A program made the translations under genes and the position numbers. A model generated the notes under the pieces. The model saw nothing but the letters and a program-made list of their open reading frames with translations. It did not search any database and was not told where the DNA came from. Shown here piece after piece: positions 1-202 of a DNA stretch of 52,304 bases. Within the stretch, counting starts at the first letter, position 1. Each line of letters starts with the position of its first letter. The stretch covers positions 1 to 52,304 of the IMG/VR virus record IMGVR_UViG_3300020197_000033. One strand, given 5' to 3'. The stretch comes from a virus. Its lineage: Duplodnaviria; Caudoviricetes.

Positions 1-202
1 CGGAAGTAAGCCGACTCGGAACGGATCGTTCATCTATGGAAATCATTCTCTGGACTTGCGTTGAAGCTCAAAAGCTTATTAACAATGTTCGCACCTCAAA
101 AGTGCCTGATGAAGTAAAAGCAGAGCTTATTCAAATTTATAAAGAACACGCACCAAAGACCTGTAAGTTTACCATAGACGCAAAAGCCGACTGAAGGAAC
201 GC
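1..202 (+). promoter_or_regulatory. Tandem glutamine-riboswitch-like elements (glnA / Downstream-peptide class); first copy truncated by the window edge
   Basis: CGTTC(27-31) pairs with GAACG(197-201); TCTATGG(33-39) pairs with CCATAGA(172-178); 3' block GACGCAAAAGCCGACTGAAGGAACGC; a related 3' half CGGAAGTAAGCCGACTCGGAACGG at 1-24; lies directly upstream of YRG peptides. Confidence 0.75.
36..194 (+). CDS. 52-aa hypothetical protein embedded in the riboswitch-like element
   Basis: Hand translation MEIILWTCVEAQKLINNVRTSKVPDEVKAELIQIYKEHAPKTCKFTIDAKAD*; below the ORF-track cutoff. Confidence 0.6.
   Translation: MEIILWTCVEAQKLINNVRTSKVPDEVKAELIQIYKEHAPKTCKFTIDAKAD

Follow-up and report, generated by a model that had tools for sequence, protein, structure and literature searches.

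We analysed the whole of a 52.3-kb viral contig from IMG/VR (IMGVR_UViG_3300020197_000033; hereafter the window), whose completeness is estimated at 25% and whose closest named relatives are Kyanoviridae cyanomyoviruses. Our comparisons of sequences and profiles indicated that positions 25-205 are almost certainly the second aptamer (RS2) of a tandem type-1 glutamine (glnA) riboswitch in a cyanomyovirus small-protein operon. That this aptamer is split, with its two halves placed around a real protein gene, is nearly certain as well. The riboswitch class is known; the new variant is a complete gene inside the aptamer, with the start codon in a helix and the stop codon in the core. DNA of the contig was present in 20 lake and freshwater metagenomes, and there were no RNA datasets among the listed runs.

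A split aptamer and its nested gene

The initial annotation of this DNA had described a glutamine-riboswitch-like element at 26-202, with halves about 130 nucleotides (nt) apart and an uninterrupted open reading frame (ORF) of 52 codons between them. The span agrees with the sequence, the distance between the halves (27-39 and 172-202) was measured as 132 nt, and the frame at 36-194 is present in the ORF list. The ATG at 36-38 can be read directly within the stem TCTATGG/CCATAGA, as had been claimed, and so can the stop codon at 192-194 within the conserved 3' block. This stop sits within GACTGAAGGAACG: its UGA belongs to the conserved GACUGAAGGAACG block and precedes the 3' strand of helix P1 by 3 nt. 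The proposed identity can now be given as a glnA-type aptamer split by a conserved protein gene, since its score after deletion of the loop falls in the range of compact aptamers.

We used 80 unique compact second-type aptamers from viral contigs, with P2 loops of 3-11 nt, as the reference set. The two best matches of their profile in both strands of the 52-kb window were 176-202 (31.0 bits) and 26-35 (4.3 bits). The loop-deleted window scored 42.9 bits with the full profile in nhmmer, compared with 38.8-57.6 bits for the compact aptamers, and the best of 500 shuffles reached 3.9 bits. The same 80 aptamers, built into a covariance model, gave a match at 164-205 (27.8 bits, E 3.5e-7), which covers the 3' half and hence is no test of the complete fold.

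Helix P1 (CGUUC/GAACG) encloses the element, and it was predicted by RNAalifold on 37 relatives. Its 5' strand is invariant in the 80 compact and 118 split aptamers, which is partly set by the scan pattern; because P1 is invariant, it provides no covariation evidence. The P2 hairpin follows directly after an unpaired A and has a loop of 132 nt rather than 3-11 nt. Its stem is 7 bp long, and the minimum free energy (MFE) fold lengthens P2 to 45/162 (33-45 with 162-178). The core reads ACGCAAAAG-CCGA-CU compared with the Rfam consensus ACGGAAGUAgGcgaaAgCc, and the junction alone reads ACGCAAAAG compared with ACGGAAGUAGG, a variant that is common to compact phage aptamers. The 3' core is shared with compact phage aptamers and is identical in those of loci L141, L159, L186, L191, L203, and L227. 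Variation in this core is linked (179-190): ACGCA-A-AAG-CC occurs with A, while ACGCA-C/G-AAG and TT occur together, in both compact and split aptamers. In split forms these core variants turn the encoded tail DAKAD into DAQVD or DAEVD.

The named phage S-CREM1 carries a compact tandem pair. Apart from the insert, the window agrees with this phage in the second aptamer, in the expression platform of Shine-Dalgarno (SD) and anti-SD sequences, and in the DUF4278 gene. The compact second aptamer of S-CREM1 has the same core variant and is annotated as glnA, with an Rfam score of 33.5 bits, below the threshold of 35; that of P-TIM68 scores 35.4 bits. RF01739 also matches the compact upstream aptamer in DSL-LC03, DSL-LC02, and S-SRM01 (29-36 bits), where the homologous region aligns end to end, and the block at 1-24 of the window corresponds to the 3' part of these matches. 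In the Rfam search at E<=1, 0/15 split aptamers (the window and 10 loci) were detected while compact neighbours were, because of the 132-nt insert. RF01704 (Glutamine-II, Downstream-peptide) scored only in compact first aptamers of relatives, with 33.1 bits in P-RSM6 (threshold 33) and 22-29 bits, below the threshold, in the other three.

We then examined whether the two P2 arms covary across the insert. The split-RS2 set came from an exact-pattern scan for halves 120-150 nt apart, which returned at least 120 stretches and, together with named records, gave 118 unique sequences. P1, P3, and P2 pairs 1-2 were fixed by the pattern, and P2 pairs 3-5 were free. These free pairs were paired in 340/348 cells (116 sequences), compared with 205.6 ± 10.7 and a maximum of 241 for shuffled partners. 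Four pair types occur at each free position, with arms such as TCTAT/ATAGA, TCCCA/TGGGA, TCCTT/GAGGA, and TCACT/AGTGA. For pairs 3 and 4, both sides were changed in 96 cells, compared with 38.9 ± 6.7 in shuffles (0/500 reach 96) and 0-14 with slid partners. At least five contiguous pairs were found in 110/116 sequences. In the MAFFT alignment only pairs 1-4 are in register, and pair 5 rests on an anchored script. Pair 3 links a base that lies 5' of the AUG and is non-coding to one within a codon, for which coding constraint alone is an inadequate explanation.

The frame across the insert is as strongly conserved. The arm ATG (offset 9-11) opens a frame that runs to the TGA or TAA of GACTRAAGG in 116/118 split RS2 sequences, whereas shuffled interiors keep such an ORF in 899/23,200 trials (3.9%) and the other two frames are open in 2/116 sequences each. 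The ratio of nonsynonymous to synonymous substitution rates (dN/dS) of the window ORF is 0.05-0.29 against the close relatives L026, L037, L077, L091, and L105. For the whole set, we used 1737 of 6670 pairs (0.1<dS<1.5), leaving out two columns at the start and seven at the end of the alignment, as well as pairs with a count of synonymous sites below 10; the median dN/dS was 0.47, and 96% of the values were below 1. Entropies at the three codon positions are 1.31, 0.85, and 1.56, so that third positions are the most variable. Indels in the alignment are multiples of three, and Cys8 and Cys43 are invariant (116/116), although encoded by TGT and TGC alike. The initial annotation had named covariation of the stem across homologues, and selection on and conservation of the frame, as checks of its proposal; both results came out in its favour.

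The nested protein matches phrog_504 (E 3.3e-6, 27.7 bits, residues 7-50). This family consists of cyanophage hypothetical proteins and corresponds to T4-like gene clusters 430 and 541 in the annotations of P-SSM4, P-SSM7, and P-HM2; its profile matches the P-SSM7 member at 1.8e-19 and the P-HM2 member at 4.7e-13. Annotations in the records examined do not place the family inside a riboswitch, and its function is unassigned. The AlphaFold2 model is a two-helix hairpin (predicted local distance difference test, pLDDT, 78) with helices at 8-19 and 25-37, and the aptamer-encoded tail DAKAD is predicted to be disordered (pLDDT <50). Pfam has no family for the protein, and a Protein Atlas search returned unnamed viral clusters at 0.75-0.76 as the best results, with no functional lead. 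Foldseek against BFVD gave no match at E<=0.001, the top rows being uncharacterised cyanophage proteins. The search of phage records with tblastn and the 52-aa protein found 3 records only, its sensitivity being too low for a census. The protein comparison comprised 110 unique proteins, duplicates and the proteins of annotated loci being left out, and one further sequence comparison took in 82 of 152.

As read from the sequence, the nested gene is without a good SD sequence, and its AUG lies within the 5' arm of P2. In 109/116 sequences, the best duplex between the arms pairs two or more of the three AUG bases. This shows that the start codon is sequestered by P2 pairing.

The first aptamer and the occurrence of the layout

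Only the 3' half of the first aptamer (RS1) is contained in the window. The tandem arrangement, the capacity of the first aptamer to hold a gene, and the frequency of the layout in cyanomyoviruses had escaped the initial annotation. In the close relative L026 (dS 0.12), the first aptamer (1432-1685) is also split and has an ORF of 68 amino acids (aa) inside. Its P2 arms are TCCTAT/ATAGGA, and the 68-aa ORF has two Cys and, by eye, a signal-peptide-like N-terminus MAKALLLLAWVPLLSFA... Just 5' of this aptamer lies a TTGACT-N18-TATAAT promoter. We also noticed by eye an NtcA-box-like GTA-N8-TAC at 1362-1375 of L026, 16 nt 5' of the promoter; its centre is at about -59, compared with the canonical -41.5, and both elements lie within 1362-1421.

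Two patterns, each returning at least 120 stretches, were used for split RS1. The arm ATG opens a 64-72-aa ORF across the insert in 176/176 unique cases, compared with 2.5% for shuffles. In marine sequences this ORF is phrog_6471, and its stop is mostly in the conserved AAGUAAG; in freshwater sequences it has a signal-peptide-like N-terminus (by eye), and its stop is 10-14 nt 5' of the 3' arm. When the two nested families were compared by hhalign, a probability of 40% and an E-value of 2.9e-4 were obtained, with Cys aligned to Cys. This is suggestive only, and ORF-A and ORF-B, the genes nested in the two aptamers, may be distant paralogues.

The 3' strand of P1 of RS1 (GGAACG) and the 5' strand of P1 of RS2 (CGUUC) are 2-4 nt apart at all tandem loci (22-31 in the window). 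By eye, a 5-bp hairpin between these adjoining strands seems possible, and it would be incompatible with both P1 helices.

All four combinations of compact and split RS1 and RS2 occur, with counts of 76, 73, 40, and 115, which are biased by the four scan patterns (at least 120 stretches of viral contigs each); aptamers without a located 5' half were skipped and are uncounted. We covered 16 of 32 named cyanophage records, the remainder consisting of duplicates between RefSeq and GenBank or of additional single-cell 'Marine virus' records. Among these 16, RS2 is split in 14, including P-SSM2, P-SSM4, and P-HM2, and compact in S-CREM1 and P-TIM68; the first aptamer is split in seven, and a riboswitch is annotated in S-CREM1 only. 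When the exact split pattern was sought in 185,579 species genomes, a search that misses diverged forms, it was found once, on a 3.8-kb contig (L250) of a lake Acetobacteraceae metagenome-assembled genome. The contig probably stems from a phage and was binned with this genome.

Aptamer folding and translation on one RNA

According to Klahn et al. (2018, PMC6212724), the Synechocystis gifB/IF17 leader is a glnA-type (RF01739) ON switch, and DUF4278 proteins are IF17-like. The window element shares with the gifB-type riboswitch, as presented there, P1 CGUUC/GAACG, a P2 right after A, the junction and a short P3 (in the variant form given above), a DUF4278 gene on the 3' side, and an anti-SD beside the 3' strand of P1. 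In contrast to that description, the P2 'loop' of the window is a 132-nt protein gene segment, with the start in P2 and the stop in the 3' core, and it is without an Rfam score.

The initial annotation had supposed that aptamer folding and translation of the nested ORF would be mutually exclusive. With the start in the P2 stem and the stop in the conserved 3' block, a ribosome on the ORF and a closed aptamer should physically exclude each other, and on this point we agree with it. We infer that the split RNA would bind glutamine and regulate both the nested gene and the downstream genes. We favour, as reasonably likely, the reading that nitrogen sensing and translation of the nested gene compete on one mRNA. 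To occupy the nested gene, a ribosome (30S or 70S) would have to melt P1, P2, and P3, whereas the closed aptamer, stabilised by glutamine, would hide the nested start codon. One sensor could thus set the ratio of the internal protein to the downstream IF17-like proteins, and translation would reset the sensor. By analogy with the ON switch of Synechocystis gifB, a high glutamine level should promote synthesis of the DUF4278 protein at the expense of the nested one. Ribosomes that finish translation at 192-194 would be expected to open the anti-SD helix too, so that control may run in either direction.

A more detailed scheme is possible, and we put it forward tentatively. It is a two-way toggle in which the glutamine-closed P2/P1 would hide the inner start while the same fold would license the IF17-like genes, and each translating ribosome would reset the sensor and open the downstream SD on terminating. 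Tandem units might then give a graded or band-pass nitrogen readout over up to four small proteins, and riboswitch-like control in phages might be far commoner than model scans report.

Several results weigh against the competition reading. P1, P3, and P2 pairs 1-2 are uninformative for the other 117 sequences because the scan pattern fixed them, and kinship alone can lift pairing over shuffles, the slid-partner control being the sole guard. The frame is broken in 2/118 copies, both frameshifted. The Infernal covariance model built no bridge over the 132-nt insert and paired the 3' half to a spurious local strand. Rfam, at the gathering threshold on the window and at E<=10 on 1-400, gave no match to glnA (RF01739, threshold 35 bits) or Downstream-peptide (RF01704); near 1-400, chance snoRNA rows alone appeared. 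RNAalifold on 37 of the 116 sequences, freshwater offset-9 sequences picked by eye, gave P1 and neither P2 nor any interior structure; P2 was missed because its arms are invariant in the freshwater clade. The fold z-score of 25-240 is -1.0, which is not significant, and enforcing the aptamer fold costs 5.6 kcal/mol. The enforced fold keeps the helix 202-208/220-226 intact, and because the SD stays paired in this way, the simple fold model shows no ON switch. Moreover, P2 cannot block the first round of translation because the AUG is transcribed about 135 nt before its pairing partner.

The main rival is that the nested ORF is a passenger gene: the P2 loop would tolerate insertions, small genes would share the operon promoter, and there would be no designed reciprocal control. 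Folding of the aptamer would then be confined to mRNAs that are untranslated or whose translation is over, and the stem position of the ATG would reflect the mode of capture or a single ancestral event. In accordance with this, compact aptamers have P2 loops of freely varying length and sequence, and the four compact/split combinations share the platform and the downstream genes, so that the switch works without the gene. If ORF-A and ORF-B are paralogues, the repeated arm ATG may be one copied event and not convergence. However, the ATG is at arm offset 9-13 in 116/118 RS2 and 176/176 RS1 sequences, across clades with about 30% protein identity, and pairing takes in two or more of the three AUG bases in 109/116, 98/101, and 75/75 cases. 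The nested genes have no good SD, which should make them sensitive to local structure. We consider a mere passenger rather unlikely, although it is the alternative to be taken most seriously.

There are two other explanations. The halves may be relics of an aptamer that the insertion destroyed, the 5' half now being the initiation region of the nested gene, the 3' half providing C-terminal codons and SD control, and glutamine sensing being lost. The missing Rfam score, the entropic cost of closing a 132-nt loop by a short stem, and the encoding of the last residues, DAKAD, by the conserved block would suit such a relic, which is nevertheless improbable given the covariation across the insert. 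All positions that are invariant in compact aptamers are kept while the interior diverges to 28-50% aa identity, and compact and split forms interchange among related phages. The encoded tail is predicted to be disordered, so that the constraint looks RNA-level rather than protein-level. In the other explanation, the insert would be a structured expansion of P2 in which the open frame is incidental, and the extended P2 of the MFE fold is in its favour. We regard this as very improbable, because the frame is open in 116/118 sequences compared with 3.9% of shuffles, dN/dS is well below 1, and the third positions vary while the two Cys are kept through both codons. The indels in threes, the PHROG family match, and the RNAalifold result without conserved interior structure argue against it as well.

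Group I and II introns carry ORFs, for a homing endonuclease or a maturase, in peripheral loops. The layout of RS2 resembles them in that a working RNA structure accommodates a whole protein-coding gene in one of its terminal loops. However, these introns are ribozymes whose ORF serves mobility or splicing, whereas the host RNA here is a metabolite sensor by its predicted class and the start codon is in the closing helix. Comparable mechanisms are leader-peptide attenuation and translational coupling by long-range pairing of the start site, as in the trp and erm leaders and the RNA phage MS2. There, as proposed for RS2, the RNA structure that governs a downstream start is remodelled when a ribosome occupies a short ORF on its 5' side. 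In RS2, by contrast, the upstream ORF encodes a conserved protein on which purifying selection acts, and the disrupted structure is a predicted ligand-binding aptamer.

Sherlock et al. (2022, PMC9481103) have reported tandem glutamine riboswitches comprising 157 doublets and four triplets. Our loci share with the tandems described there two aptamers 2-4 nt apart before one gene set, of which the window holds the 3' half of RS1 and the full RS2. In contrast to them, either or both aptamers here enclose an ORF, and the descriptions of tandems consulted in PMC9481103 mention no inner genes. An example of the published view that riboswitches are seldom used by phages is McCown (2017, PMC5473149), in which only two glutamine aptamers were found in cyanophage genomes. 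No description of a gene inside a glutamine aptamer was found in the available portions of the full-text literature, which also comprised PMC9964418, PMC2864571, PMC6698751, PMC9004378, PMC12379486, and PMC9602691, while Ames and Breaker (2011) and supplements such as Additional File 1 of Weinberg (2010) lay outside this coverage.

Aptamers are usually viewed as compact non-coding domains 5' of the genes that they control, whereas here a gene under selection lies inside one. Ligand sensing and translation would thus act upon the same nucleotides. The layout is common among cyanomyoviruses and is present in the model cyanophages P-SSM2, P-SSM4, P-HM2, and P-SSM7. Scans with family models miss it, which bears on the published view that riboswitches are rare in phages. 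Because the layout precedes IF17-like genes, it also bears on how cyanophages read and reset the nitrogen metabolism of the host.

Downstream operon and other features

The features of the operon region are listed in Table 1. The downstream DUF4278 gene has a strong SD, which is paired with the anti-SD directly 3' of P1, and the same platform is found 3' of compact RS2 in S-CREM1 and locus L191. The four small ORFs at 235-717 are joined by ATGA overlaps; the first two are assigned to DUF4278/phrog_5049, and the one at 530-631 matches the N-terminal part of phrog_545 (E 3.2e-4). A YRG-type ORF lies 3' of 336/341 assessable aptamer pairs.

Table 1. Coordinates of the aptamers, the nested gene, and the downstream operon in the window.
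Feature	Position	Strand	Details and basis
3' half of RS1, CGGAAGTAAGCCGACTCGGAACGG	1-24	+	Truncated by contig end; identical to L026 1661-1684
RS2 P1 5' strand CGTTC, then A32	27-31	+	Pairs with GAACG 197-201
P2 5' arm TCTATGG, including ATG 36-38	33-39	+	Pairs with 172-178; MFE fold
Nested ORF-B, 52 aa, phrog_504	36-194	+	ORF list; conserved geometry; dN/dS; profile match
P2 3' arm CCATAGA	172-178	+	Doubles as codons for part of T-I-D; sequence, covariation, fold
RS2 conserved 3' core CGCAAAAGCCGACTGAAGGAACGC	179-202	+	Covariance-model and nhmmer matches
Parts of RS2 3' core			Junction CGCAAA; P3 A185-U192, G186-C191, loop CCGA; TGA 192-194; GAACG 197-201
Anti-SD CTCTTTA 202-208 paired with TAAGGAG 220-226 (SD AAGGAG 221-226)	202-226	+	MFE and aptamer-enforced folds
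First downstream gene, 46 aa, DUF4278-like, YRG motifs	235-375	+	PF14105 E 6.2e-4, 20.5 bits (below cut-off 25.3); phrog_5049 E 1.3e-12
Second DUF4278 gene, 53 aa, ATGA overlap with first	372-533	+	PF14105 E 2.6e-6, 28.1 bits (above cut-off 25.3)
Two overlapping micro-ORFs, 530-631 (33 aa) and 628-717 (29 aa, hydrophobic)	530-717	+	ORF list
Intrinsic-terminator-like hairpin GGGGGGCAACCCCC and T run, operon end	723-745	+	Sequence

In some relatives, manA RNA motifs (RF01745, 184-188 bits) adjoin the glutamine-switch operon, namely at 928-1113 of L449 (P-RSM6), 1006-1203 of L007 (AG-345-O18), and 20-205 of L452 (P-SSM4). Elsewhere in the window, a 166-aa ORF is present at 1754-2254. By eye, we take it to resemble plastoquinol terminal oxidase (PTOX), the gene of which is a common auxiliary gene in cyanophages. 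A permuted two-piece transfer-messenger RNA (tmRNA) of the cyanobacterial type was found at 29495-29791 (RF01851, 174 bits; RF04321, 98.5 bits), and four flanking tRNA genes lie at 29336-29418, 30170-30249, 30613-30684, and 30687-30759.

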